Made by a program: the position numbers and the translations under genes
Shown here: positions 3,468 through 30,867 of the stretch, piece by piece
Position numbering within the stretch: position 1 is the stretch's first letter
How the letters are laid out: each line of letters begins with the position of its first letter
Assembly: GCA_963730745.1 (NCBI GenBank)
Contig: CAVSTA010000025.1
Location: 1-64,000, forward strand
Source of the DNA: an uncultured Alphaproteobacteria bacterium
GTDB taxonomy: Bacteria > Pseudomonadota > Alphaproteobacteria > ATCC43930 > CGMCC-115725
DNA: 64,000 bases
Reading direction: 5' to 3'
Notes under the pieces: generated by a model
What the model was told of the DNA's origin: nothing
Seen by the model: the letters and a program-made list of their open reading frames with translations, nothing else
Database searches by the model: none

Positions 3468-3760
3468 GATGAGACGAGACCCTCCGCCGGCGGACGTTTG
3501 CGATCATTTCGGACCCCGGAGCCCGCAAGACGACACTGACCGAGAAATCGCTGCTGTTAGGCGTCGCGATCCAGCTCGCGGGCGAGGTGAAGGCGCGCGG
3601 GGAGCGACGGCGGGTGCGCTCGGATTGGATGAAGACGAGCGTAAGGGTGGCGATCTCTTTCTCCTCGGCGGTGATGAGCTTCGAGCACGAGGGGCACGCT
3701 TATGAACACTGCTCAATACGGTGGGCCACCAGGATTATCGGGAGGACACGTAGCGGTTCC
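3468..3760 (+). pseudogene. prfC: Second, diverged prfC N-terminal fragment (roughly aa 8-110) with an internal stop and frameshifts
   Basis: RRTFAIISDPGARKTTLTEKSLLLGVAIQLAGEVKARGERRRVRSDWM...SSAVMSFEHEGH...LLNTVGHQDYREDT*. About 80% DNA identity to 1349-1500. Confidence 0.55.
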
Positions 3761-3792
3761 GGCTTGGAGCACTGACCAAAGATTCGGTTGCC

Positions 3793-3900
3793 ATAATCGC
3801 ATGGTACGTCGGCGCATATCGGCGCCCGAGATCGGCAGGCAGTAGGCTTTTGGAGGGAGTTGGGAATACCTGATCTCAACCTGATAAAACAGGCAAAACA
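3793..3900 (+). repeat. Copy 1 of a ~110 bp conserved junction motif (ccataatcgcat ... ttggagggagttgggaatacctgatctcaacctgataaaacaggcaaaacagg)
   Basis: Shares the 12-mer, an SD-like box and an MPDL(D/N)LIKQ-coding start with copies at ~6600-6730 (-) and ~23500-23650 (-). Confidence 0.5.
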
Positions 3901-3927
3901 GGTGACGCGGTTAAGGTTGAGAGGTGC

Positions 3928-4290
3928 TCGATCCCGGGCTCGGCGAACCCTATCTCTATCGCCAGCTGGTCGGCCCCTGGATCCTTAACTTTCCGACGAA
4001 GGGTCACTGGCGCGCCGTATCTAACTTTCTGACATCTGGCGGGTATCCAATACCTGGTTGATCATTACAAAGAATGGGGTATTACCTCTATTGCTGTGCC
4101 GCCGCTTGGCTGCGGCAATGGGCAGCTTGATTGGAACGTCGTCGGCCCAACCCTATATCGATACCTCGCCGAGCTTAAAATCCCTGTTGAGCTGTACGCC
4201 CCGATCGGCGCGCCTGCTGAGCAGTTTCTGACGCGGCCAAATTCTGCCGCGACCTCGGGAGAGCCGCTCCGAGTGGTCGGGGCACGTCTA
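3928..4290 (+). pseudogene. Macro-domain (DarG-like ADP-ribose-binding fold) fragment, frameshifted
   Basis: GEPYLYRQLVGPWILNFPTKGHWRAVSNFLTSGG then GIQYLVDHYKEWGITSIAVPPLGCGNGQLDWNVVGPTLYRYL; the FPTK.HWR...SIAVPPLGCGNGGLDW pattern resembles DarG-type macro domains, recalled from memory only. Stop and frameshift present. Confidence 0.4.
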
Positions 4291-4299
4291 CGGCCAAGT

Positions 4300-4450
4300 C
4301 AGAGCCGAATTGGAGCGAACAGGTCAGCTTGCCGGGCCCCATGATATGTTGATCGGTGCACATGCGCGGAGCGCGGGCCTAATCGTTGTGACCAACAATC
4401 TCCGGGAGTTCGAACGTATCCCCGGTTTACGGATCGAGAATTGGGTGTAA
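4300..4450 (+). pseudogene. C-terminal fragment of a VapC PIN toxin (paralog of vapC at 7409-7810)
   Basis: GPHDMLIGAHARSAGLIVVTNNLREFERIPGLRIENWV* closely matches the C-terminus of the intact VapC. Confidence 0.55.
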
Positions 4451-4521: not shown

Positions 4522-5079
4522 TCAGGCTCGCGAATGCTCCATGGGCGGGCGCTCCGAGGCCGATTGGCTCGTGAAGGGCCGCAGTGCCTCCGGCGTGCGC
4601 ATGTCGCGCGGCGGGGTGAAATCCTTTCTTGCGATGCCGCGCATTTCTTCCGGCGGGCGCGGCATGCCGCGGCGATCGCTGTAATCGGGCGCCGGCCGGC
4701 TTGTGCCGGTAAGGGCCTGAGCAGTGATGCAGTCGAGCGCGGTCACGCCCGCCACTGCGGCGAGCGCAATGGCGACATTGCCTTTGCGCGGATTTTGCTC
4801 GTCGAGCCCGGTGGCGAGAGTCGCCAGATCGAGCGCATCGCCCGCAACCCGTCCCCAGATCCATGGACCCGGATTGTCGCTCATCAATATGCCGACGCCC
4901 GCCGCCATTTCGCGGGCGCCGTAAAACCGCAGCAGCGATTCTTTGCCTTGCATTCCCATTTGCTCGGTCAGCATCCTCGGCGCCAGCATCTCGGCGAGGC
5001 CGAGCCCGATGCTGAACCAGCCGAGACCGCGCGCCAGCGCCATTGCCGTGCCGTTCTGTCGATACGCCATGACATTCAC
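4522..5079 (-). CDS. Hypothetical membrane-associated protein
   Basis: 185 aa ORF immediately downstream of the dehydrogenase, with hydrophobic stretches. No domain recognised. Confidence 0.35.
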   Translation of the reverse strand: MNVMAYRQNGTAMALARGLGWFSIGLGLAEMLAPRMLTEQMGMQGKESLLRFYGAREMAAGVGILMSDNPGPWIWGRVAGDALDLATLATGLDEQNPRKGNVAIALAAVAGVTALDCITAQALTGTSRPAPDYSDRRGMPRPPEEMRGIARKDFTPPRDMRTPEALRPFTSQSASERPPMEHSRA

Positions 5080-5084
5080 CCCTT

Positions 5085-6254
5085 TTACGGTTTGAGCACG
5101 ACCTTGACGCAGCCGTCTTCCTTGTCGCGGAACGTCTTGTACATACGCGGACCGTCATCGAGGCTGACCTTGTGGGTGATGACGAACGACGGGTCGATCT
5201 GGCCCTCCTCGATGCGGTGCAGCAGATCGTCGGTCCAGCGGTTCACATGCGTCTGCCCGGTGCGCAAGGTCAGGCCCTTGTTCATGAACATCCCCATCGG
5301 GATTTTGTCCAACAGCCCGCCATAGACGCCCGGCATCGAGACCGTGCCTGCCGGACGGCAGACGTAAAAGATTTCCCTCAGCACGTGCGGCCTGTCCGTC
5401 TCGAGCATCAGCATCTGTTTCGCGCGGTCGTACATCGAGTCGATCGTGGCGGTGGCGTGCGCTTCCAGCCCGACCGCATCGATGCATTTCTCCGGCCCCT
5501 TGCCGTCGGTCAGGTCGTTCAGGCGCTCGACGACGCTCTCCTCTTCGAAATTGATCGTGATGGCGCCGCCGGCGCGCGCCATGCTGAGCCGCTCGGGCAG
5601 CCGGTCGATCGCAATGACCTGCTTGGCGCCGAGCAGGACGGCGCTGCGGATCGTCATCTGGCCGACCGGGCCGGCGCCCCAGATCGCCACCGTATCGGTC
5701 GGCTCGATGTCGCACTGGACCGCCGCCTGCCAGCCGGTCGGGAAGATGTCGCTGAGGAACAGCACCTTCTCGTCGTCGATCCCATCCGGGATCTTGACCG
5801 GGCCGACATCGGCGTAGGGAACGCGGACATATTCGGCCTGGCCGCCGGGATAACCGCCCGTCAAATGCGTATAGCCGAAGAGCCCGGCAGTCGTGTGCCC
5901 GAAGACCTTGTCGGCGAGATCCTTGTTGCGGTTGGTGCGCTCGCAGACCGAGAAATTGCCGCGCTTGCACTGGTCGCACTCGCCGCAGATGATCGTGAAC
6001 GGCACGACGACGCGGTCGCCGACTTTCAGCTTCTTGTTCTCCGAGCCGACCTCGACCACCTCGCCCATGAACTCGTGGCCCATGATGTCGCCGGATTTCA
6101 TACCCGGCATGAAGCCGTCGTAGAGGTGCAGGTCGGAGCCGCAGATCGCGGTGCTCGTGACCTTGACGATGGCATCGCGCGGATGCTCGATCCGCGGGTC
6201 AGGAACGCGGTCGCACCGAATGTCCTCTTTGCCGTGCCAGCACAGAGCTCTCAT
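5085..6254 (-). CDS. Zn-dependent alcohol dehydrogenase family protein, glutathione-independent formaldehyde dehydrogenase-like
   Basis: 389 aa with [27 protein letters not shown]-x2-C-x2-C ([10 protein letters not shown]) and a GAGPVG Rossmann motif. Confidence 0.75.
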
Positions 6255-6599
6255 CAGGAATTTCTCCTTCGGATTTGCCGAGCGGCTTGCCGCCCTATGA
6301 GGCGAAAACCGGGGCCGGCCGAGTTCGTTCCTGATTAGGCGACTTTCATGGACAGGGCGCCGTCTGCTCGCGTTGGGGTTGACGCACCGCCGATCGTCTC
6401 CACGACCGCTGTTCTGCCGGTTGCCTGACTTCGCACAATCCGTGATTAGAGTCGATTATTCCATCTTGCTGCATCTGCAGCAAATCAGCAGCAAAGCCTC
6501 GCCCATAGGTTGTTGAGCATGCCCGACCCGGAGCCGCCATCCCCGTCAAAGCAACGCCGCCGCGGCGAGCGTGGATTTCCTGCGCGAGCCGGCCCGCCG

Positions 6600-6730
6600 A
6601 CCGGGGGATCCGCCCTTGGCTGCCGCTCGTGCCGGTGCCTCGCTCCCTGTTTCCCCTGTTTTATCTGGTCGAGATCAGGCATCCGCAACTCCTTCAATCG
6701 CAATCCCGCACCCGCTCACGGGCTCGAGTG
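6600..6730 (-). repeat. Copy 2 of the conserved junction motif (ttgaaggagttgcggATGcctgatctcgaccagataaaacagg ... atgcgattatgg)
   Basis: See 3793-3900. Lies in the ~600 bp non-coding stretch between the dehydrogenase and the resolvase remnant. Confidence 0.5.
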
Positions 6731-6853
6731 TATAATGCGATTATGGTAATTGCGTGACGTTTATGCCATATTCACCAGACGGGCCGGCGCAATTCGACGC
6801 GCTTAGGCCATTTGTCCGATAACGCAAATGGGTTATGCATCCCGCAACTTATG

Positions 6854-6990
6854 ACCGAAACTCACCCGCAAAACCGCCGTTTCGGCTATGCCCGCGTCAG
6901 CACTGTCGGCCAGACGCTCGACAGCCAGCTTGAGCAGCTACGCGCCGCAGGATGCGCCGCCAAGATTTACCGCGAGAAGCAGCGCTGGTT
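6854..6990 (+). pseudogene. Serine recombinase (resolvase/invertase) N-terminal remnant
   Basis: MTETHPQNRRFGYARVSTVGQTLDSQLEQLRAAGCAAKIYREK matches the first ~43 aa of the resolvase catalytic domain, then diverges. Confidence 0.55.
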
Positions 6991-7178
6991 GCCGTTTGCG
7001 GGCGCGGTCGGGTGGGTCCTCGACGGAGCAAAATTATATTGCTTAGCGCGAGGTGGTCCAACTGGTCGGATCGGCCGGATGCCGTGAAACCGGGCATTGC
7101 CTTCTGCGCAAGCAGAACCCTTGAAACGAGCGCGATGGATGGAGCTATGTATATCCCGCTTGGATATACGAGAAGAAG

Positions 7179-7412
7179 ATGGCTCACTCGAGGATTTTTA
7201 AGACCAACCGAACCCAGGCGGTGCGCCTGCCGAAAGCGGTGGCATTCCCCGACCACGTACGCGAGGTCGAAATAATCCAGCTCGGCCAGAGCCGACTTAT
7301 AGTTCCCGTAGGGTTGCGCTGGGACGACTTCTTCCGGAATGGGCCGTCCGTATCCGAGGATTTTATGCAAGACCGGGAGCAGCCCGCCGCCGAGAGGCGA
7401 GAGCAGCTTTGA
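7179..7412 (+). CDS. vapB: VapB (AbrB/SpoVT-type) antitoxin
   Basis: MAHSRIFKTNRTQAVRLPKAVAFPDHVREVEIIQLGQSRLIVP; 4-nt overlap with vapC. Confidence 0.7.
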   Translation: MAHSRIFKTNRTQAVRLPKAVAFPDHVREVEIIQLGQSRLIVPVGLRWDDFFRNGPSVSEDFMQDREQPAAERREQL

Positions 7413-7810
7413 TGCTGCAATACATGCTGGATACGAACATCTGCGTCTACGTGCTCAAGAAACGCCCGGAGCAGCTGCGCGAAAGGTTCAACCGCTTGGC
7501 CGGGCAGCTTTGCATTTCCACGATCAGCCTAGCCGAGTTGTTGTACGGCGTGGAAAAATCATCCCGTCCGAATGAAAACCGCCAAGCGGTCGAGCAATTC
7601 GTCGCTCGGCTCGGTGTCCTGCCATTCTCGGCGTCGGCGGCCTCTCATTACGGGCAAATTAGGGTCGCTCTGGAGGGGGCCGGTCGACCGATCGGCGCGC
7701 ACGACATGCTGATCGGGGCCCACGCCCGCAGTGAAGGGATGACCGTCGTGACCAATAACCTCCGCGAGTTCGACCGTATTCCCGAGCTTGGAACGGAGAA
7801 TTGGGTTTAG
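7409..7810 (+). CDS. vapC: VapC PIN-domain toxin
   Basis: MLDTNICVYVLK...ISTISLAELLYG...HDMLIGAHARSEGMTVVTNNLREF. PIN motifs, 133 aa. Confidence 0.8.
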   Translation: MMLQYMLDTNICVYVLKKRPEQLRERFNRLAGQLCISTISLAELLYGVEKSSRPNENRQAVEQFVARLGVLPFSASAASHYGQIRVALEGAGRPIGAHDMLIGAHARSEGMTVVTNNLREFDRIPELGTENWV

Positions 7811-21066: not shown

Positions 21067-21361
21067 GCGGTGACCGCGCCGGCGCACTGATCAGTCCCGG
21101 GCGCTCCTCTCCAGCCGGATGGCGGCATCAATGAGTGATGACCATGTCGGCCGTCACGGCGAGCGATGGCGCCTCGACTTCTCGACCGGCCTCATTGCCT
21201 GCACCGGAATGCGGTTGGCGCAGCCGCAGGTCTGGCCGCGTTGGCTGCGGCGATCGCTCCCTTGACCGTCATCTCGGATTTGTCGCATGGGAGACGAGCC
21301 CGGAATTTCGCAGGACGAATTTTCACGCGCTTCGCGGAGGGCACTATCGGGAGGGGATCCG

Positions 21362-22438
21362 ATGACCACGGGAGCGGCGGGTGGTTTGAGCGCCATCCCG
21401 CAACCGGTAACCGCGGCTCTGACGCGCGCGGCAATCTTTCTGGTCGCGGCGGTGAACCCGGGTGCCGACAATCGCGCCGCCGTGAGATCGCTTTGCGGAG
21501 ACCTCGCCGCGCTTTTGCGTGCGGTCGGTTTTCGCGACCCGGAGGGAAGCCTCTCCTGCGTGATGGCGATTGGGTCCGACGCGTGGGACCGGCTCTTCGG
21601 GCAGCCGCGGCCGGCGGAGTTGCATGAGTTTCGAGAGATCCGCGCGGGACCGCGCCAAGCCGTCTCCACAGCCGGCGATCTGCATTTCCACATCCGCGCG
21701 GAGCGTATGGATCTCTGCTTCGAATTGGCCACGCAAATCATGGCGCGGCTCGGGAATGCCGTTTCAGCGGTCGACGAGGTGCACGGCTTTCGGTCCTTCG
21801 ATACCCGCGATCTTCTCGGGTTCGTCGACGGGACGGAGAACCCCAGCGGCCGGGCAGCAATTGACGCCACGTTGATCGGCGACGAGGACATCGCGTTCGC
21901 GGGCGGCAGCTACGTAATCACGCAGAAATACCTGCACGATCTGACCAGCTGGAATGCGCTGCCTATAGAAGCGCAGGAGCACATCATCGGCCGCACAAAA
22001 CTGTCCGGCATCGAGCTGGATGCGGCGATCAAGCCGAGTTCGGCGCACAGTGCGCTCACCACGATCGTGGAGAACGGGAAGGAGATCAAGATCCTGCGCG
22101 ACAACATGCCTTTCGGCCGTGCCGGGCAGGGTGAGTTCGGCACGTACTTCATCGGCTACAGCCGTTCGCCGCGCACGATCGAGCAGATGCTCGAAAACAT
22201 GTTCGTGGGTCGCCCGCCGGGCAACTACGACCGGCTGCTGGACTTCAGCAGGGCCGTTACCGGCCACCTCTTCTTCGCGCCGTCTGCGACGTTTCTGGAA
22301 AACGTGACAGCCGACGAAGCCCAGCCGGTCGCGCCCGCACAATCCGTTCAGCCCGTGCCGGATGGTTCACCCCTGGCCGATGGTTCGCCCCGGCTCGATG
22401 GTTCGTTGGGCATCGGCTCGCTCAAAGGAGACCCCGGT
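21362..22438 (+). CDS. DyP-type (dye-decolorizing) peroxidase cargo protein with C-terminal encapsulin targeting peptide
   Basis: DyP motifs (HFHIRAERMDLCFE, GFVDGTENP, FIGYSRSP). Ends with a Pro/Ser-rich linker and DGSLGIGSLKG, the canonical encapsulin cargo-loading peptide. No stop codon before the downstream ATG. Confidence 0.75.
22424..22432 (+). promoter_or_regulatory. Ribosome-binding site (aaaggagac) for the encapsulin gene, embedded in the 3' end of dyp
   Basis: AAGGAG ~8 nt upstream of the encapsulin ATG at 22439. Confidence 0.5.
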
Positions 22439-23248
22439 ATGAATAATCTGCATCGCGAGCTTGCGCCGATATCCGAGGCGGCGTGGGCGCAGATCGAGGA
22501 GGAGGCCTCGCGCACCCTCAAACGCTACCTCGCCGGGCGCTGCGTGGTCGATGTGCAAGGGCCGAGCGGCACCGCCCTCTCGGCGGTCGGCACCGGTCAT
22601 CTGCGGGCTATCGCGGCGCCAGCGGAAAGCATCATCGCCCGGCAGCGCGAGGTGAAACCGTTGGTCGAGTTGCGCGTGCCGTTCGAGTTGGACCGCCAGA
22701 TGATCGACGATGTCGAGCGCGGCGCAAACAATTCCGATTGGCAGCCCGCAAAGGATGCCGCGCGACGGATCGCTTTTGCCGAGGACGGCGCCATTTTCGA
22801 GGGCTATCCTGCGGCCGGTATCGAAGGCATCCGCCAGGGGACCAGCAATCCGATTACGACATTGCCGAGCGACGTGCGTAATTACCCCGACGCGATCGCC
22901 CAGGCGTTGAACCAGCTGCGTCTGGTCGGGGTCAACGGTCCTTACTCGGTGCTGCTGGGCGCCGACGCCTATACCGCCCTCGCCGAGACCAGTGACAACG
23001 GGTATCCGGTGCTGCAGCACATCAGGCGTCTCGTCGATAGCGAAATCATCTGGGCCGCGGCCATTGCGGGCGCTTTTGTCGTCACCACCCGCGGCGGCGA
23101 TTTCGACCTGCACATCGGCCAGGACATCTCGATCGGCTATCTGAGCCACACCGATGCCGCCGTTCGCCTGTACCTGCAGGAGACGTTCACCTTCCTCCTG
23201 CTGACCACAGAGGCCGCCGTGGCGCTGGCGCCTGCGTCGGCATCCTGA
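22439..23248 (+). CDS. Family 1 encapsulin (linocin M18-like) shell protein
   Basis: 270 aa: MNNLHRELAPISEAAWAQIEEEA...PFELDRQ...NPITTLPSD... is typical HK97-fold encapsulin. In frame with upstream dyp. Confidence 0.8.
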   Translation: MNNLHRELAPISEAAWAQIEEEASRTLKRYLAGRCVVDVQGPSGTALSAVGTGHLRAIAAPAESIIARQREVKPLVELRVPFELDRQMIDDVERGANNSDWQPAKDAARRIAFAEDGAIFEGYPAAGIEGIRQGTSNPITTLPSDVRNYPDAIAQALNQLRLVGVNGPYSVLLGADAYTALAETSDNGYPVLQHIRRLVDSEIIWAAAIAGAFVVTTRGGDFDLHIGQDISIGYLSHTDAAVRLYLQETFTFLLLTTEAAVALAPASAS

Positions 23249-23304
23249 CGGTTGCTTGCGGAAGGCATCCTTGCTGGGGCTCGGCTACGCCGACCATGGT
23301 CGGA

Positions 23305-23440
23305 TCAACTCGTCCCGATCCGGCCTGGCAAACGGGGCGATTTCGCCACCGGCTTTGGCGAGATGATGCCCTCGTTGATGCCGACGATGCCGTATTCGAG
23401 CTCCTCGGCGACGCGCCAGATGCGGCCGCATGTCGCGGCT
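23305..23440 (-). pseudogene. gabD: gabD 3'-end fragment (divergent; ...[23 protein letters not shown]), broken at the FYSRD codon by a ccctcccttccctcccc-initiated element
   Basis: DNA and protein similarity to the C-terminus of the intact gabD at 29407-29760. Confidence 0.5.
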
Positions 23441-23499
23441 GTAGCCCTCCCTTCCCTCCCCGGCAAGCGGGGGAGCGCTAGGATGGGGGCATGGTCGGC

Positions 23500-23650
23500 C
23501 ATCTCGACCCGCAAAAAACGCCTGCGCCCATCGCGCACCCCCTGTTCCGCCTGTTTTATCAGGTCGAGATCAGGCATCGCCAACTCCTTCAAAAACAAAA
23601 GGCCCCGCTCGCGGGGCGCCGATCTCGCAACGATACGATGCGATTATGGC
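23500..23650 (-). repeat. Copy 3 of the conserved junction motif (ttgaaggagttggcgATGcctgatctcgacctgataaaacagg ... atgcgattatgg)
   Basis: See 3793-3900. Confidence 0.5.
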
Positions 23651-23669
23651 GACTTTACTGTTGCTTACT

Positions 23670-23770
23670 GATGGCACCGGCGGTCTCGGCGAGGCGCCTG
23701 GTGAAGGCGTCGTACACGCCGGCTTGCACCAGGATGCGGTGGGCACAGACGCAGGTCTGGCGGGGCGTCG
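23670..23770 (-). pseudogene. gabD: Short gabD mid-region fragment (roughly aa 300-330)
   Basis: ~85% DNA identity to 29935-30020. Confidence 0.4.
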
Positions 23771-23798
23771 CGCGGGGCCCAACGCGACGAAAATTCCG

Positions 23799-24140
23799 CT
23801 AGAGCCCGATCAAAGCCACCAATTTCATGCGAACTTCGTGCAGAATTTCTGCGGGAACCGCGGCTCCGGCGTAGCTGATCGGGCGCGCCATGGTATCGAT
23901 GCTCCGCACATGGCTGGTCAAGATCTCTCCGGAAACCGGCAGCCCCATCGGCAGCACAACGCTGGTGCCAAAGGGACGAACGCGCGAGGTAATCGGGCAG
24001 ACGATCGCGAACTCCGTTGCCCGGCAAAAGTCGGCAGGTGAAACGACCAGCGCGGGGCGTCGACCGCTCTGCTCGCGACCGACGCGAGGATCAAAATCGG
24101 CCCAGATAAGGTCACCCGCCTCCGGTGCGTAAGCCATCAC
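23799..24140 (-). CDS. mazF: MazF/PemK-family toxin
   Basis: GDLIWADFDPRVGREQSGRRPALVVS...FAIVCPITSRV. Confidence 0.75.
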   Translation of the reverse strand: MMAYAPEAGDLIWADFDPRVGREQSGRRPALVVSPADFCRATEFAIVCPITSRVRPFGTSVVLPMGLPVSGEILTSHVRSIDTMARPISYAGAAVPAEILHEVRMKLVALIGL

Positions 24141-24141
24141 C

Positions 24142-24396
24142 TCATTCGACGATCTCGCGACCCTTGTCAGGTCCCCAATCGAAGGCCTGGCGCATCGCCT
24201 CTGGAGTCATCCCCCGCAACAAGTCGGCGAGGACATAGCGCGGGCGAGCCGGAGAAATGATGATCCGGTCGCCCTCAGCCTCTACATCGACCCGGGCTCC
24301 CTCGCGCAGGCCCGCTCGACGCGCGATCTCCTTGGGAATGCGCAGGCCAAGGCTGTTGCCCCAGCGTGCGACCTGCACTTGCATCGGCTTCTCCAC
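24142..24396 (-). CDS. mazE: MazE/PemI (SpoVT-AbrB) antitoxin
   Basis: VARWGNSLGLRIPKEIARRAGLREGARVDVEAEGDRIIISP; immediately upstream of the toxin. Confidence 0.7.
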   Translation of the reverse strand: MEKPMQVQVARWGNSLGLRIPKEIARRAGLREGARVDVEAEGDRIIISPARPRYVLADLLRGMTPEAMRQAFDWGPDKGREIVE

Positions 24397-24437
24397 CCGC
24401 CAGGATATACATAGGATATCCGATCAATGCCGTCAAG

Positions 24438-24560
24438 TCAGCGGTCGATGCCGCCCATGCAGAGGTATTTGACCTCGAGGAATTCCTCGATGCCGTATTC
24501 GAGGGCCTCGGCGACGCGCCAGATGCGGCCGATGTCGCGGCTGTAGAAACAGGCGATGGC
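24438..24560 (-). pseudogene. gabD: gabD C-terminal fragment with an internal deletion; left half of a copy split by the MITE-like element
   Basis: [41 protein letters not shown]. Confidence 0.55.
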
Positions 24561-24875
24561 CCCCTCCCTTCCCTCCCCCGCGGGCGGCAGGGCTGTCCGG
24601 GGAATCGAACTCGGTTGCACCAGATCCGTGTCGCACAACCGCCATTGGCCAAGAAAAACCCCTCTCCGCCCTTTAGGGGGGAGAGGGAGGGGCCCGCGAA
24701 GCGGGAGGGTGAGGTGGGCGGCGCCGCAAACCGGCACGACGGCCCTCCTCACCCTACCCTCTCCCCGGCCGGCGGGGGGAGAGGATATTATTGCGGGTCA
24801 TCTGCAATGGACTTAACGGCAAAGTTGATCCTATATTTTCCCCGGACAGCCCTGCGCGGGCGGGGGAGGATTAGG
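24555..24875. mobile_element. MITE-like non-autonomous element (~320 bp) with ~30-40 bp imperfect terminal inverted repeats and internal perfect hairpins
   Basis: Left end ccctcccttccctcccccgcgggcggcagggctgtccgggg vs right end ccccggacagccctgcgcgggcgggggagg. Internal palindromes ccctctccgccctttaggggggagaggg, gggagggtgagg/cctcaccctacc and ccctctccccggccggcggggggagagg. Interrupts a gabD fragment. Confidence 0.45.
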
Positions 24876-24879
24876 GTGG

Positions 24880-25320
24880 GGGCCTCGTTGGCCGTCTTGA
24901 ACGCCTCGTCCTCGCTCTTGAAGCGGTAGAGCGGGGCGACGGGCCCTAAGGTCTCCTCCTTGTTGATGACCACGTCGGTCGTCACATCGGTCAGGACCAT
25001 CGGCTCGAAGAAGCTGCCGCGCCGTCTTCATGTTTGATGGGCGGCGCGCTTGCCGTCGGTGACGACCTCGCCGCCCTTCTTCAAGGCGTCGGCGATGTGC
25101 GCCTCGACCTTCTCGACCGCCTTCATGTCGATCAGGGGCCGATCACCGCTCCAGGCTCGGACCCGGTGGCGACCTTCGTCGCTACGGTGATCCGGGCCTG
25201 GGGAAGGCATCGCATGACACCGTCCTGCACAGAGATGCGGCTGGCGCCACGCAGGTGTGATCAGCATACGGTAGTAGGCGCGCTTAATTGCTCCCACCCC
25301 AATTGCGCTATGCGTTAAAA
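24880..25320 (-). pseudogene. gabD: gabD fragment (roughly aa 283-415), continuation of the copy split by the MITE
   Basis: ...ILVQDGV..., [72 protein letters not shown]. Confidence 0.55.
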
Positions 25321-25326
25321 GGAGTA

Positions 25327-25940
25327 ATGGTTTCTCTCCCACCGCACCTAGCGCGCACTCAAATCCGACCTGGAGGAACGAGGAAACATGCCTACGTTCA
25401 GATTCTGATCGCTGCGATTGCTTGTGCGACGCCGGCCATGACGTCCGCCGCGGCTGACTGCCATATTGACGCGAGGTCGGTCGCCGGCACCTACGGCTTA
25501 GCGGCACAGGGCGTGGCAACTGACACGAACCCCCTCGTCCCGTTGGACCGTTTGCCCAAGCGGGTACGGTAACCCAGGTCGCGACGTCGCAAACATCAAA
25601 TACGATCAGCGGCACCTGGATGCTGATATCGGAGAGAACAACGCGAACGGCTACACGCCGGATACACCCCTCAGCGGCACCTTCCAGATCGACCGGGCGA
25701 GGTGTGCCGGGGAATTCTACATAACCGGCCTCACGCGCCGGCTTTCCATGTCGTGGTCGTCGCTGGCGGTGACGAAGAGCGAGCGATTTCGGCGCTACCC
25801 AACCTGATCGTGGCATACGTCAGCGTCAAGCGCCTGTAACGGTTGCGAGTCGGACCAACCTTGGTGACGCAAACGGCTTAGCACGCCGATAATGCGACCG
25901 GCCGAGGACCTGCAATAGCGCCTGAGCTCGCAGGGCGCGA
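25327..25940 (+). other. Cargo segment with a small putative secreted protein ORF (good RBS aaaggag; signal-peptide-like ILIAAIACATPAMTSAAADC), apparently frameshifted
   Basis: ORF 25327-25572 continues in another frame (NPGRDVANIKYDQRHLDADIGENNANGYTPDTPLSGTFQIDRARCAGEFYITGLT). Flanked by direct gabD-fragment repeats. Confidence 0.3.
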
Positions 25941-26400
25941 CCAGGCCGAAAGTCTCCTCCTTGGTTTATGACCACGTCGGTCGTCACATCGGTCAGGACC
26001 GTCGGCTCGAAGAAGCTGCCGCCCTCTTCAGTTGATGGGCGGCGCGCTTGCCGCCGGTGACGACCTCGCCGCCCTTCTTCAAGGCGTCGGCGATGTGCGC
26101 CTCGACCTTCTCGACCGCCTTCATGTCGATCAGCGGCCCGATCACCGCACTAGGCTCGAACCCGTCGGCGACCTTCATCGCGCCGGCGGTTTCACCGAGG
26201 GCTCGGTGAAGGCGTCGTAGACGCCGTCCTGCACAAGGATGCGGTTGGCGCAGACGCAGGTCCGGACGGCATTGCGATATTTGGGGGCAATTGCGCTCTC
26301 GGCCGCGGCCTCGATACAGTTTTTTGACCGGGCCAGCGCACTACTCCGTCTGCAATTGCCGATCTCCCTCGGTCAGCATCAATTAGCACGATCGGGTTCG
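25940..26400 (-). pseudogene. gabD: gabD internal fragment (roughly aa 225/265-392), ending at the GPVAP codons
   Basis: [49 protein letters not shown]...[19 protein letters not shown]. Confidence 0.5.
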
Positions 26401-26433
26401 AGGCCAGCTCGCAGCCGATCCTGGCCCCGCCCG

Positions 26434-26823
26434 CTACTTCAGGACATTGCGTGCCAACCCGTGGGCGGCCTGCGCCAGCCGATCGTCATTCGTCCATAAG
26501 GCAGCGCATTGATGATGCTGGGCGCAAGCGAGGTGCAGCGCATCTGGTGTCCTCAAACCAAAGTGACCGCGGAGCTGGGCGGCTTGCAGGTAAACCGGCT
26601 CGGGCATTTCCAACGACGCGAACTGGTCGAAGAGGTCGATATAGGCGCGCTGCAGAACTGGATCCCCACGCTTGATGGGCCCTACCAGACACTCGCATTT
26701 GACCAGCGGGGAGATGCCGAAGCGGGCTCCTTCGGCTTGGGCGATCGCGCCTGCGACGGGCTCGCCCCACCGCGCATGATGCTCGGTAAGGTAGATCACC
26801 AGGCAGGCGTCGAGATAGATCAA
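26434..26823 (-). CDS. vapC: VapC PIN-domain toxin (GTG start overlapping the phd stop)
   Basis: [17 protein letters not shown]...[14 protein letters not shown]...[29 protein letters not shown]. Confidence 0.7.
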
Positions 26824-27086
26824 TCCCACGAGCTTCTCTCCAGCCGGATGGCGGCATCGATCTCCTCGGCAGAACGTCGCGCGTAGGCGGGCAGGGGATG
26901 GCCCTTGAGCCAGTCGAGAATGGCCCGGGCGCTGCCCGCATCTGCTCTTGCCGCCGGCGCCGGTCCCGTAGGCACCAGCCGAACCACCGGTTCGCCGCGG
27001 TTGGCGATGACCACCTCCTCGCCGGCCCGAGCGGCTCTTATCAGCTGTGAGAGGCGGTTCTTCGCCTCCAAGATGTTTACTTGCAC
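26820..27086 (-). CDS. phd: Phd/YefM-family antitoxin
   Basis: [39 protein letters not shown]. Confidence 0.7.
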
Positions 27087-27129
27087 GAGCCCCTACTCCG
27101 ACCTTCTCCTGGCTAGAGATGGCTATACT

Positions 27130-27414
27130 AGCCAGATGTGTAAAGGCATGTCGGTCGATGCCGCCCATGCAGAGGTATTTGACTTCGAGGAATTCCTCGA
27201 TGCCGTATTTCGAGCCCATGATCGCGGGGCCGATGCCGCTTTCCTTCATGCCGCCGAAGGGGGCGATCTCGGTCGAGATGATGCCTTCGTTGATGCCGAC
27301 GATGCCGTATTCGAGCGCCTCGGCGACGCGCCAGATGCGGCCGATGTCGCGGCTGTAGAAATAGGCGGCGAGGCCGAATTCGGTGTCGTTGGCCCATCTT
27401 TGTGGCGTCGTCAT
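27130..27414 (-). pseudogene. gabD: gabD 3'-end copy (aa ~393-end) without a stop, reading through into the phd/vapC region
   Basis: [55 protein letters not shown]...[17 protein letters not shown]. Confidence 0.6.
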
Positions 27415-27998: not shown

Positions 27999-28298
27999 TT
28001 ACCGGTCGATGCCGCCCATGCAGAGGTATTTGACTTCGAGGAATTCCTCGATGCCGTATTTCGAGCCTTCGCGGCCGATGCCGCTTTCCTTCATGCCGCC
28101 GAAGGGGGCGATCTCGGTCGAGATGATGCCCTCGTTGATGCCGACGATGCCGTATTCGAGGGCCTCGGCGACGCGCCAGATGCGGCCGATGTCGCGGCTG
28201 TAGAAATAGGCGGCGAGGCCGAATTCGGTGTCGTTGGCCATCTTGACCGCCTCGTCTTCGGCTTTGAAGCGGTAGAGCGGCGCGACGGGTCCGATCAT
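27999..28298 (-). pseudogene. gabD: gabD 3'-end copy (aa ~388-end), beginning exactly at the GPVAPLY codons
   Basis: [99 protein letters not shown]. Confidence 0.6.
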
Positions 28299-28967
28299 GA
28301 CCGCGAACCCGACCGCAACAACGTCCTGGCCCCCTTGCGAAGTTGCTCGAACAGCGCCGCATCCACGGGCTGGTTGAGAAAGCCGTGCGCGACGGCGTTA
28401 CGAACCGCAAGCCCGCGGCGGAGAACGGAATAATCGTCGTCCTCGATGATGCCCTCGGTCAGCAGCATCTTGATAAGCGCCGATGAGGAAATCCGGCGGG
28501 TGGGCGGGATCTTCAGGGGCAAGAGCCGGTGGCGCCCGGCCGCTTCGATAATCGACCATAGCAACAGAAATTCCAGGCGGCGCTGCATCGCCGTCTTCGT
28601 CGACCGAGCTCAGGTTTGCCAGGCGCGCCGAAAGATCTGGAACATCGGGCAGCTGCGAGGGCGGCGCCCATTCCGGATCCGGCAAGTCGGCGTACACTAC
28701 TTGCAGCTTCCAGCCGGCGCGATGCTCCAATGCCCTGGCGAACTGCTGGACTTGTTCGAAGCTCGCCGGCGAAGAGGTCTTGATTTCGACGACGATATTT
28801 TCCCCATTGCGATGGGCGATCAGATCCGGCGCCAGCGTGCGCAAAAACTCCGGCAATTCTCGTGGTGAAGGGTCTACCGAAACCTGGTAGCCTTGGCGCG
28901 AATACCAATCAGCATACTGTCTGATAGCTTCGCGTTCGCTGGCGACGAGGTCGGTGTCGGCACTCAT
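28295..28967 (-). CDS. Putative two-domain protein, apparently frameshifted: N-terminal PD-(D/E)xK-like nuclease fold plus C-terminal HEPN-like region with an Rx4HG motif
   Basis: N-term ...[23 protein letters not shown] (a D...E.K pattern); C-term frame ...[26 protein letters not shown] overlaps the RusA stop (ATGA). Domain assignments rest on motifs only. Confidence 0.35.
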
Positions 28968-29340
28968 GGGATCCTGCTGTGGTCGGGCGCCGGATCGGCA
29001 CGCACGTAAACGAAATCAGAACCTGCCTGCGACATGCGCTCGATTGCGTCCAACAGATATAGGCTCGCTCCGGTCAACGATAACCCAGCGCTGAAGCGGC
29101 TTTTGCGGATCAAGATCTCCGAGACCTGCTGGTCGTCCCGAAAAAGTACGCCCTTGAGACCGTCGAGCAAAGATTTCGCTATGTTGTCGACATCAAGCGT
29201 GGTTTCGCCCTGATAGAAATAGATGATCAAGACCGCGACATCCTGGTCTGTCGGTTCGCCCTCCTGTTCCAAACGTTCCCGAGCCGCTCGCGACACCCGT
29301 TCGCGCCATCGGCGCCGCGAGCGTGCGATTTGCATTCGCG
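28964..29340 (-). CDS. rusA: RusA-like Holliday-junction resolvase
   Basis: ...[39 protein letters not shown] matches the RusA DxDNxxKxxxDaL...DD.qV catalytic signature. Confidence 0.55.
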
Positions 29341-29406
29341 CTGCGGGGCGCGCCGGCAACGATAAACTCCATCCCGGTTCATCGCGCCGACGTGCCGTCG
29401 AGCCGG

Positions 29407-30867
29407 CTAGCGGTCGATGCCGCCCATGCAGAGGTATTTGACTTCGAGGAATTCCTCGATGCCGTATTTCGAGCCTTCGCGGCCGATGCCGCTTTCCTTC
29501 ATGCCGCCGAACGGGGCGATCTCGGTCGAGATGATGCCTTCGTTGATGCCGACGATGCCGTATTCGAGCGCCTCGGCGACGCGCCAGATGCGGCCGATGT
29601 CGCGGCTGTAGAAATAGGCGGCGAGGCCGAATTCGGTGTCGTTGGCCATCTTGATCGCCTCGGCTTCGGTCTTGAAGCGGTAGAGCGGCGCGACCGGGCC
29701 GAAGGTCTCCTCCTTGGTGATGACCATGTCGGTCGTCACGTCGGTCAGCACCGTCGGCTCGAAGAAGCTGCCGCCCTGCGCGGCGCGCTTGCCGCCGAGC
29801 GACCACCTTGGCGCCCTTCTTGACGGCGTCGGCGATATGCGCCTCGACCTTCTCGACCGCCTTCATGTCGATCAGCGGGCCGATCACCGCGCCCGGCTCG
29901 AACCCGTCGGCGACCTTCATCGCGCCGGCGGTCTCGGCGAGGCGCTTGGTAAAGGCGTCGTAGACGCCGTCCTGCACCAGGATGCGGTTGGCGCAGACGC
30001 AGGTCTGGCCGGCATTGCGGTATTTCGAGGCGATCGCGCCCTTGACCGCCATCTCGATATCGGCGTCGTCGAAGACGATGAACGGCGCGTTGCCGCCCAA
30101 TTCCATCGACAGTCTTCTTGACCGTGCCGGCGCACTGCTCCATCAGCAATTTGCCGACCTCGGTCGAGCCGGTGAAGGTCAGCTTGCGCACGATCGGGTT
30201 CGAGGTCATCTCGCCGCCGATCTCCTTCGACGTCGCCGGTGACGCAGGAAAAGACGCCCTTCGGCACGCCGGCGCGCTCGGCCAATTCGCACAAGGCCAG
30301 CGCCGAATAGGGGGTCGCGGTCGCCGGCTTCACCACCATCGTGCAGCCGGCGGCCAGGGCCGGGCCGCATTTGCGGGTGATCATCGCCGCCGGGAAGTTC
30401 CACGGCGTGATCGCGGCGCAGACGCCGATCGGCTCCTTGGTCACGACGATGCGCTTGTCGGAGGCGTGCGCCGGGATCGTGTCGCCGTAGATGCGCTTGC
30501 CCTCCTCGCCGAACCATTCGATGAAGGCGGCGGCATAGGCGATCTCGCCCTTCGACTCGGCAAGCGGCTTGCCCTGCTCGGCGGTCATCAGCGCGGCGAG
30601 ATCCTCCTGGTTCGCCATCATCAGATCGAACCATTTGCGCAGGATCTGCGCGCGCTCCTTGGCGGTCTTGCCGCGCCAGCCCGGCAGGGCGCGGTCGGCC
30701 GCCTCGATCGCCTGGCGGGTCTCCTCGGCGCCCATCCGCGGCACCGTGCCCAAGGTCTCGCCGGTCGCCGGGTTGGTGACCGGGATCGTGCCGCGGTTCA
30801 ACGCGTCGACCCATTCGCCATTGACGTAGCATTGCTGGCGGAACAGCTTCGGATCCTTGAGCTCCAT
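29407..30867 (-). CDS. gabD: NAD(P)-dependent succinate-semialdehyde dehydrogenase, full length but with ~3 apparent frameshifts
   Basis: N-term [22 protein letters not shown]...[18 protein letters not shown]; mid ...[14 protein letters not shown]...[16 protein letters not shown]...; C-term ...[16 protein letters not shown]. Confidence 0.8.

Follow-up and report, generated by a model that had tools for sequence, protein, structure and literature searches.

A dispersed repeat of uncultured Alphaproteobacteria is the 5′ end of a DUF5681 two-gene module and survives mostly as relics

Introduction

Among the short repeats described in bacteria, promoter-bearing miniature inverted-repeat transposable elements (MITEs) such as the Correia elements of Neisseria are ~100-200 bp long, occur in many copies in or near genes, carry promoter-like signals and outnumber their autonomous parent. 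Here, we describe a repeat with similar traits that is present in three copies in a 64,000-nt stretch of DNA from an uncultured alphaproteobacterium (positions 1 to 64,000, forward strand, of contig CAVSTA010000025.1 in assembly GCA_963730745.1; this whole stretch is referred to as the window), and that consists of a 21-nt box, a leader and a 34-nt core. Terminal inverted repeats (TIRs) and short target duplications characterise Correia elements and MITEs in general, whereas in this repeat neither was seen, the copies are old and the unit is the 5′ end of an operon.

Other known systems offer partial parallels. REP/REPIN-RAYT repeats and the ends of IS200/IS605 elements are short imperfect palindromes that stand alone or at operon ends in many copies, and they lack TIRs and target duplications; in the present case, however, clustering of the neighbouring ORFs revealed no Y1/HUH transposase, the core is nearly always linked to its box and leader and has a frequent hairpin-less variant, and the copies number tens per genome rather than hundreds. 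Full modules with two direct cores and relics that end at the core are reminiscent of solo long terminal repeats (LTRs) and solo att sites, but most full modules have a single core and no linked integrase. Integron cassettes with attC sites are small and of unknown function, with an imperfect palindrome that contains unpaired bases and a promoter outside the varying part, while the copies described here are dispersed rather than arrayed and carry their own promoter-like box, and no intI was found. The iteron and operator arrays of plasmid rep and phage genes are clustered, subfamily-specific repeats at the gene start of a small nucleic-acid-binding protein; here there is no evident replication function, the orphan arrays outnumber the genes and binding is only putative. 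Finally, the Rickettsia palindromic elements are alphaproteobacterial repeats of ~100-150 bp inside protein-coding genes, which insert in frame and leave a working host gene, whereas the host genes in our case are truncated, partly deleted or duplicated. Overall, the repeat resembles promoter-bearing MITEs, REP-like palindromes and solo relics but seems to fit none of them fully, and neither Rfam nor a literature search yielded a description of the repeat, its box or its core.

Several further identities were considered and rejected. An integron cassette or attC site does not agree with copies that are dispersed over many contigs, with a core in which no GTTRRRY boxes were read and with neighbourhoods that hold no integrase. 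A type III (ToxIN-like) toxin-antitoxin system does not fit either, as the main type has only two 9-nt repeats rather than a tandem 30-40-nt array and no fold or domain could be recognised in the two proteins. A small-terminase pac site was discarded, as no terminase context turned up and a Methylobacterium phage-plasmid relative has the gene pair with neither box nor core, and none of the Xer/dif-like, integration host factor (IHF), CcrM, LexA and CtrA sites seemed to fit the box or the core.

The repeat is the 5′ end of a DUF5681 two-gene module

The repeat is the 5′ end of a module of two genes, the first of which encodes a DUF5681 protein. It had been noticed in the window as three copies of a ~110 bp motif between gene fragments, and the three copies are indeed there. 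The 12-mer CCATAATCGCAT has three matches in the window at ≤1 mismatch (shuffle mean 0.22; no shuffle had three), and the 25-mer CCTGATCTCRAYCWGATAAAACAGG occurs at 3869-3893 (+), 6655-6679 (−) and 23550-23574 (−), compared with 0 matches in 100 shuffles. The aligned copies share the 12-mer and a 25-34 nt block, arranged in the order 12-mer, ~45 nt variable spacer, GGAGTTG, start codon and a conserved block with an AACAGG end (Table 1). Other parts of the original prediction required revision. The start codon attributed to all copies is an ATG in copies 2 and 3 and an ATA in copy 1. The block of 13 conserved codons is shared, but the peptide as first noted is found only in copy 3 (MPDLDLIKQAEQG); those of copy 1, (I)PDLNLIKQAKQV, and copy 2, MPDLDQIKQGKQG, differ at several residues. 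The copies do not diverge fully after codon 13, given that their DNA-level homology to the DUF5681 gene reaches +45 in copy 1, +145 in copy 2 and +64 in copy 3 (signed positions count from the start-codon position), and the conserved units are all longer than ~110 bp. None of the three window copies has kept the second gene of the module.

The module came to light when a degenerate pattern of the block was run against a GTDB set in which each species is represented by a single genome. The further copies that the original prediction had proposed to look for exist at no fewer than 115 loci (designated by L numbers), and 118 copies make up the core-anchored set analysed below, which can only recover copies with an intact 25-mer. 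When translated from the start codon, three of these 118 copies are intact (L001, L064 and L093) and encode a protein of 155 aa (MPDLDLIKQxEQGxRDRRGRFxKGRSGNPAGRPRG...) that matches Pfam DUF5681 (PF18932) with E = 1.4e-11; the bit scores of intact relatives, 45.3 and 44.6, lie above the gathering cut-off of 27.5. A second open reading frame (ORF) of ~140-167 aa overlaps the DUF5681 stop codon in the intact copies; this partner is present in L001, L064, L093, L116, L120 and L122, and homology among modules stops at about +870 to +900. A sister subfamily with a 157-aa protein (L120, L121, L122) has N-termini quite different from those of the main type. The intact modules are flanked by ordinary chromosomal or housekeeping genes, with no recombinase adjoining. 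Reading the motif as a conserved promoter-leader region, one of the options raised initially, was therefore essentially right, since it is the control region plus the first 12 codons of DUF5681 genes. The idea that the motif might always stand before one intact gene family holds in so far as the family is single, but the gene is truncated, frameshifted or absent in most copies.

The two proteins differ in how widely they are found, with 2781 homologues of the DUF5681 protein at E < 1e-3 and 34 of the partner, which is Ala-rich and helical and has the C-terminal motif DFAxASFAELFAWSLA. The partner had no match in PHROGs or Pfam, the DUF5681 protein matched only PHROGs of unknown function, and PDB sequence searches with both proteins returned chance matches only. 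A structure model of the DUF5681 protein combines a disordered Arg/Gly-rich N-terminus (residues 1-37) with four helices, for which structural matches are generic. A literature search for DUF5681 found no functional account; only an unrelated phage-annotation paper came up.

In a plasmid collection, the only relatives are annotated as DUF5681 and reside on three Methylobacterium/Methylorubrum plasmids; the one examined, which resembles a phage-plasmid, keeps the gene pair with neither box nor core. There was no match in a DNA search of PLSDB plasmids with copy 3 or in a core-pattern scan of viral contigs, and a protein search of a phage collection gave a single weak, unannotated match. The nearest cultured DUF5681 pair resides on Methylobacterium currus plasmid NZ_CP089300.1 (L198), where a macro-domain and DUF4433 pair was observed at 24769-26482.

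Box, leader and core

A second scan, independent of the core, used the box AATTRCCATAATCGCATYRTA against metagenome contigs and yielded 74 loci, 58 of them distinct. All three window copies are of the main type, whose 5′-to-3′ order is box (T)AAAATTRCCATAATCGCATYRTA, a ~65 nt leader with a GC-rich hairpin, a Shine-Dalgarno sequence (SD; GGAGTTG), the start codon and the 34-nt core CCTGATCTCGACCWGATAAAACAGGnnnAACAGG, which overlaps codons 2-13 and is built as an imperfect palindrome from two CCTGAT units followed by two inverted AACAGG(n)GG units. The main type accounts for 31 of the 53 box-anchored loci with enough sequence; every one of the 31 has the core, 69-83 nt from the box start, and in 25 of them it shows ≤1 mismatch over 31 scored positions.

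The box is the left edge of the shared sequence, because homology across subfamilies starts exactly at (T)AAAATTGCC, and a single 21-nt box heads several different DUF5681 subfamilies. Several types of leader and N-terminus follow it; wherever a protein can still be recognised it is DUF5681-like, and several types have no recognisable ORF. In the place of the core, other DUF5681 subfamilies with the same box have (G)ATAACAG(G/A)nGG arrays in direct and inverted orientation, and the units of the main-type core lend themselves to the same reading. To judge by its letters, the box may be an extended -10 element (TGcCATAAT). In addition, several loci have a second palindromic element, CTGCTGATnnGCTGCAGAT, downstream of the core: it lies 100-370 nt 3′ of the core in L017, L029 and L164/L172/L178/L190, and it starts both of the long repeats in L048.

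Individual loci show further arrangements of these parts. The Shine-Dalgarno region of L078, ~60 nt upstream of the start codon, occurs as four tandem 13-nt units GTAAGGAGTTGGC, and in L170 (OCOJ01039191.1) two tandem CTGCTGATTnnCnGCAGAAGCAG...AAACAGG elements, which look like a hybrid of the core and the second palindrome, follow the start ~80-160 nt after the box.

A dispersed, old and mostly relic family

The family is dispersed, old and mostly relic, and its box-to-core block stays together. Four genomes hold at least 8-13 copies each, and the core-anchored loci come nearly all from metagenome-assembled genomes classified as 'uncultured Alphaproteobacteria', mostly of the Microflora Danica project. 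About 85-95% of the copies are without an intact gene. Apart from the three intact copies, the core-anchored set is frameshifted, internally deleted or cut short, and an ORF of ≥140 aa is found in 3 of the 20 box-anchored copies with enough downstream sequence. Errors in Nanopore assemblies are, in our judgement, an unlikely cause of the broken genes: the same truncations occur in JGI, ENA and GenBank contigs from unrelated projects. In ~1 Mb of flanking DNA there were no isolated 3′ gene fragments, and two extra 5′ motifs turned up.

Over -90..+60, pairs of copies from the same genome show 72-85% identity, which speaks against a recent burst. Since many relics occupy orthologous positions between genomes, with flanks 85-94% identical, they are old and have been retained. 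A search for empty sites, in which the flanks of all copies were compared with all fetched DNA, returned occupied orthologous sites and flank duplications only. Two main-type copies were observed on short contigs, one of 3.1 kb in a Steroidobacteraceae bin (L007) and one of 2.3 kb in a Chthoniobacterales bin (L115). For these assignments to a gammaproteobacterial family and to the Verrucomicrobiota, respectively, mis-binning is more likely than transfer.

A likely constraint on the box-to-core block

The block seems to be conserved as nucleic acid rather than as a peptide. The free positions of the search pattern are nearly fixed to A/T (GAT, ATA, AAA), against a window mean of ~65% GC, and the core substitutions that do occur are non-synonymous (D/N, L/Q, E/K and the variable codon 10). 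Nearly all copies also retain AACAGG at +32..+37, although the pattern used for the scan did not include it. The start codon is missing from about a quarter of the copies (ATA, ACG or ATC in its place), and the ATA of the copy-1 subfamily is kept across several genomes. That the peptide itself is not conserved follows from the quite different N-termini of the 157-aa sister subfamily. In the copy-3 subfamily, compared across three genomes, the leader differs at 2-3 of 70 positions (96-97% identity) and the gene remnant at +37..+124 at 20-21 of 87 (76-77% identity). Together, near-invariant synonymous core sites, lost start codons and some relic leaders with much higher conservation than the sequence around them point to a function at the nucleic-acid level and suggest that the box-to-core block evolves under non-protein-coding constraint.

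The explanation that we consider the best, and hold with moderate confidence, is that the motif is the control region of the module, that the block in relics has been retained as a cis-acting nucleic-acid element, and that the window copies are such relics. Most copies are relics in which the genes are gone and the box-to-core block is still present; its retention would be due to an action in cis. The block would combine a compact promoter with a repeat array that binds protein, a reading that the arrays of the other subfamilies support. The core would most probably be bound as double-stranded DNA, perhaps by the DUF5681 protein through its arginine-rich N-terminal arm, and orphan copies might remain regulated promoters or serve as binding (decoy) sites.

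Edges and rearrangement breakpoints

The edges of the copies were mapped with a profile of five full modules against all 118 copies. Left ends cluster at -80 to -120. On the right, homology ends within ~8 nt after the core in 34 of 118 copies and before +80 in 78, with a tail to +900. Junctions thus fall preferentially at the 3′ edge of the core. Some ten cores are solitary, lying between unrelated flanks with no remnants of DUF5681 or partner, and several of these follow other promoter-like sequences. In L072 and L010, a full module lies between two direct cores 949 bp apart, and the three modules of the 157-aa type have no 5′ core and a good core just after gene 2, with flanks that diverge right after AACAGG. 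A 3′ core as a general feature of the module is contradicted by the unbiased box-anchored sample, in which full modules are often without one.

Host sequences next to the motif are frequently duplicated or lost. Direct host duplications abut it in L048 (479 bp, 90% identity), L165/L187 (476 bp, 85%), L012 (330 bp), L131 and L133. The right-hand repeat begins exactly at the core edge in L054, L110 and L133, with short microhomologies in L110 and L054. In L048 (978-1455 and 1611-2087) and L187 (1763-2237 and 2434-2908), independent copies were observed to be exactly bracketed by repeats of near-equal length. In L084/L051 the motif replaces part of pntB, with a loss that we estimate at ~115 codons relative to Escherichia coli PntB. 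Units of fragment, motif and fragment recur across genomes with different outer flanks. Among opposite-strand pairs of copies ≤25 kb apart, five are convergent and none divergent, an excess that, with so few pairs, could be due to chance; window copies 1 and 2 form one of them. The proposal that the motif marks rearrangement junctions is thereby partly borne out, by the stop of homology after the core, the flanks with direct cores, the host duplications of 330-479 bp and the convergent orientation of five out of five pairs.

According to our preferred explanation, the module would have inserted first, and its edges would then have undergone deletion, duplication and illegitimate recombination that broke the neighbouring genes, with the core 3′ edge as the most frequent breakpoint. 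We propose that the window copies lie between gene fragments because of such an insertion and later rearrangements at the edges.

A number of points weigh against this explanation. That the box is a promoter and that a protein binds the core are both inferred, and a sigma-70 consensus scan (-35/-10, 16-18 bp) found no promoter at copy 3, an extended -10 element being outside that scan. In the core-anchored set, some of the conservation of the 25-mer is a consequence of the pattern searched for, and gene conversion among copies could mimic purifying selection. Moreover, the explanation does not account for how the module spreads, for the direct cores at some modules, for the ~480-bp host duplications or for the convergent excess.

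Some of these features would be expected if the core were instead a recombination or termination site of a mobile cassette. The imperfect palindrome would be cut or recombined on its 3′ side, either by the product of a distant gene (tyrosine or serine recombinase, HUH nuclease or relaxase) or by the module's own two proteins; relics would then be non-autonomous derivatives that keep both ends, with the box on the left and the core on the right, or deletion products between 5′ and 3′ cores akin to solo LTRs. Such a cassette, which we regard as the main rival although a rather unlikely one, would account for the arrival of the module at new sites, for the bracketing by cores, including the modules with direct cores 949 bp apart and the 157-aa modules with a core after gene 2, and for the host deletions and long duplications. 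A good core is present at least once in each of the intact modules examined, and the 34 copies that lose homology soon after the core, the stand-alone cores, the convergent pairs and the second palindrome at the right end of the copy-2 unit all accord with it, as do 94%-identical genomes that differ exactly at the left edge of the unit and a MITE-like excess of relics over intact modules. Yet clustering of the ORFs in the copy neighbourhoods of 115 loci revealed no enriched transposase, recombinase or HUH gene, nor does any adjoin the intact modules, and the resolvase next to copy 2 is a remnant. Reading of the alignments, without a dedicated repeat search, revealed no TIRs between the box end and the core end, and no short target-site duplications were seen at 19 sharply bounded relics. 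Box-anchored full modules without a 3′ core, right ends that form a continuum to +900 rather than a single cut site, the absence of the core from the viral contigs scanned and the lack of young copies likewise speak against it. The terminus of an insertion sequence (IS) or cassette, the other option of the original prediction, found no support in that form: in the neighbourhoods covered, neither a transposase or recombinase carrying the motif end nor TIRs or short target duplications were seen, and the copies are old.

DNA site or RNA leader

The motif could also act as RNA, either as a cis-regulatory leader or as a small-RNA gene, with the orphans as riboregulators or as decoys, resembling RNA antitoxins, for the intact copies. 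A transcript starting at the box would fold into a hairpin or attenuator and a core hairpin, and would thereby control translation. We judge this improbable, even though the leader hairpin lends it some substance. Pairing reaches 70.5% of cells in the hairpin and 32-48% with slid partners, some double changes occur in each of the seven pairs, and on the sense strand G.U outnumbers A.C by 29 to 11. Double-change cells number 19 against 11.5 expected, a value reached by 7 of 500 shuffles. A T-run follows the leader hairpin in copy 3 and, by reading, in L072 and L120-L122, but copies 1 and 2 and the majority of main-type copies have none. The layout (anti-SD CUCC, long helix, SD) is preserved in other subfamilies although their sequences differ, conservation persists in relics that have no start codon, and the next downstream ORF is co-oriented in 47 cases versus 21 by crude gene calling.

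Other tests of structure do not favour the RNA. RNAalifold, applied to 35 diverse copies, found neither a leader structure nor covariation, with seven invariant pairs inside the core only, and whole-leader folding of window copies 1 to 3 gave z values of -0.03, -1.6 and -0.8. In the fold check suggested in the original prediction, the leader hairpin has modest support, and the entire leaders of the window copies do not fold better than shuffled sequences. A long-range helix over the start codon (GGCAUCGGC with GCCGAUGCC) was rejected because it has no G.U bias (G.U 16 versus A.C 22) and few compensating changes. Rfam 15 gave no match anywhere in the window at the gathering score, and with the limit relaxed to E = 10 copy 3 had just two microRNA matches, both attributable to chance. 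No terminator recurs consistently 3′ of the core.

As RNA, the core of copy 1 folds with -6.8 kcal/mol (z = -2.8) and the core hairpin of copy 3 with -13.4 kcal/mol (z = -4.6). This hairpin is lost in the frequent CAG variant, represented by copy 2 (z = -0.8), with no compensating change, and for this reason the core is favoured, from its pattern of variation, as a sequence-specific double-stranded DNA site. The leader hairpin, for its part, may be an RNA element or attenuator.

It is also conceivable, albeit at a low probability, that the box-to-core unit is a non-autonomous element that spreads without a known transposase. In one version, the DUF5681 protein and its partner would mobilise the unit via the box and the palindromic core. 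In another, template switching would copy it into broken or stalled replication sites, bounded by an open promoter on the left and the palindrome on the right, and would leave host duplications of up to ~480 bp or deletions, together with microhomology junctions.

The least probable explanation is an ordinary decaying family of paralogous genes whose apparent conservation stems from search bias, recent gene conversion and chance and whose junctions are random deletions: the broad, roughly exponential distribution of right-hand truncation points, the restriction of the core-anchored scan to intact 25-mers and the common internal deletions and frameshifts are compatible with it, but the box-anchored sample, which is unbiased for the core, has a near-perfect core in 31 of 31 copies, only 5′ pieces survive with no orphan 3′ pieces in ~1 Mb, synonymous positions are fixed against the GC bias, leaders are far better conserved than gene remnants and cores stand alone.

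The window copies and their neighbourhood

The coordinates of the three window copies, with one neighbouring gene remnant and the convergent pairs, are given in Table 1.

Table 1. Features of the repeat in the window and related pairs of copies
Feature	Position	Strand	Remarks
Copy 1, conserved unit	3742..3938	+	~-124..+72 from the start-codon position, by pairwise BLAST/alignment with L024, L045 and L009; ATA subfamily, non-coding
Copy 1, nhmmer match to the module profile	3778-3910	+	
Copy 1, 12-mer CCATAATCGCAT	3791..3802	+	Inside box TTGCCATAATCGCATGGTA; possible extended -10 (TGcCATAAT), putative promoter
Copy 1, 34-nt core CCTGATCTCAACCTGATAAAACAGGCAAAACAGG	3869..3902	+	ATA at 3866-3868 in place of ATG
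Copy 2, conserved unit	6449..6823	-	-141..+233; common to L029 (94% identity), L098 and L023
Copy 2, second palindromic element CTGCTGATTTGCTGCAGAT	6473..6491	-	Close to the right end of the unit
Copy 2, decayed DUF5681 gene remnant	6537..6645	-	+38..+145; nhmmer match 6767-6537 = profile -94..+155; ORF of only 65 codons
Copy 2, start codon and 34-nt core	6646..6682	-	ATG 6680-6682, core 6646-6679; CAG variant
Copy 2, leader hairpin GAGCCCGTGAGCGGGTGC	6708..6725	-	Paired in minimum-energy and centroid folds
Copy 2, 21-nt box AATTACCATAATCGCATTATA	6731..6751	-	Holds the 12-mer at 6735-6746
Resolvase N-terminal remnant	6812..7087	+	PF00239, E = 8.5e-6, residues 24-56 only
Copy 3, conserved unit	23444..23665	-	-88..+133; between N-terminal-side and C-terminal-side gabD-type fragments on the same strand
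Copy 3, final recognisable DUF5681 gene piece	23513..23540	-	+38..+64; nhmmer match 23664-23513
Copy 3, start codon and 34-nt core	23541..23577	-	ATG 23575-23577, core 23541-23574
Copy 3, leader hairpin GCCCCGCGAGCGGGGC then CTTTTGTTTT	23592..23617	-	Terminator-like
Copy 3, 12-mer of the box	23638..23649	-	
Convergent pairs of copies	3778-3910 / 6537-6767	+ / -	Window pair; others are L074/L060, L089/L042, L048 and L105/L097; they enclose 2.6-21 kb with ordinary metabolic genes

Most of the neighbours that had been named at the outset were recovered. Pfam identifies a Zn-dependent alcohol dehydrogenase and the resolvase N-terminal remnant, as well as a DyP-type peroxidase plus encapsulin, and the gabD and prfC fragments are evident from their translations; the macro-domain fragment placed at 4096-4344 had no Pfam match. 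Copy 1 follows a 5′ fragment of prfC, and the same junction is found in L009. The left flank of the copy-2 unit is different in each of the genomes compared (L029, L098, L023). The recombinase-like coding sequence of the resolvase remnant (MTETHPQNRRFGYARVSTVGQ...) begins ~30 bp outside the left edge of copy 2, is oriented away from that copy and is mentioned as context only. Copy 3 lies between separated gabD fragments, where presumably ~140 codons are missing, as estimated against typical aldehyde dehydrogenases.

Comparison with related genomes shows additional differences in this region. At 4647-4977 the window has ~330 extra bases relative to the 94%-identical L029, and at 4682-6449 the window and L029 share ~1.77 kb that is extra relative to L098 and includes the Zn-alcohol-dehydrogenase gene, right after the copy-2 unit. 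The intervals 23300-27400 and 28047-30834 form a mosaic of repeated fragments of gabD-type aldehyde dehydrogenase (ALDH) genes, in which one 25-residue segment occurs twice and one 19-residue segment three times. Interspersed with these fragments are a MazE/MazF pair (23799-24396) and an ORF in which a PIN domain is joined to a C-terminal piece of an ALDH (26434-27414). At 29455-30834, tblastn aligns another ALDH gene in three co-linear pieces (query residues 5-466). A 653-aa ORF at 21287-23248 (+) comprises the N and C domains of a DyP-type peroxidase and an encapsulin shell (Linocin_M18), and may be a fusion of cargo and shell or, alternatively, two genes that a sequencing or frameshift event has joined.

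In L120, the intact 157-aa-type module adjoins a HamA and DEAD-box helicase pair (4844-7527), read as a Hachiman-type defence system, and the window copies are located near toxin-antitoxin genes. These settings suggest that modules gather in variable or defence regions.

Perspectives

For genome annotation, the repeat explains a recurrent short ORF beginning 'MPDLDLIKQ...', which would otherwise be called as unrelated hypothetical proteins or as false N-terminal extensions. If the preferred explanation is true, it provides the first concrete handle on DUF5681, a domain of unknown function whose soil-metagenome members number in the thousands. A 34-nt DNA element and a 21-nt box, both well delimited, accompany DUF5681 and can be tested for binding and promoter activity. 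Interest in the family would rise sharply should spreading independent of a transposase be demonstrated. In this repeat family, an operon's regulatory head has survived several times more often than the genes behind it and is found at the breakpoints of host-gene deletions and duplications, which is of relevance to the origin of the pseudogene-rich mosaic regions in uncultured soil Alphaproteobacteria.

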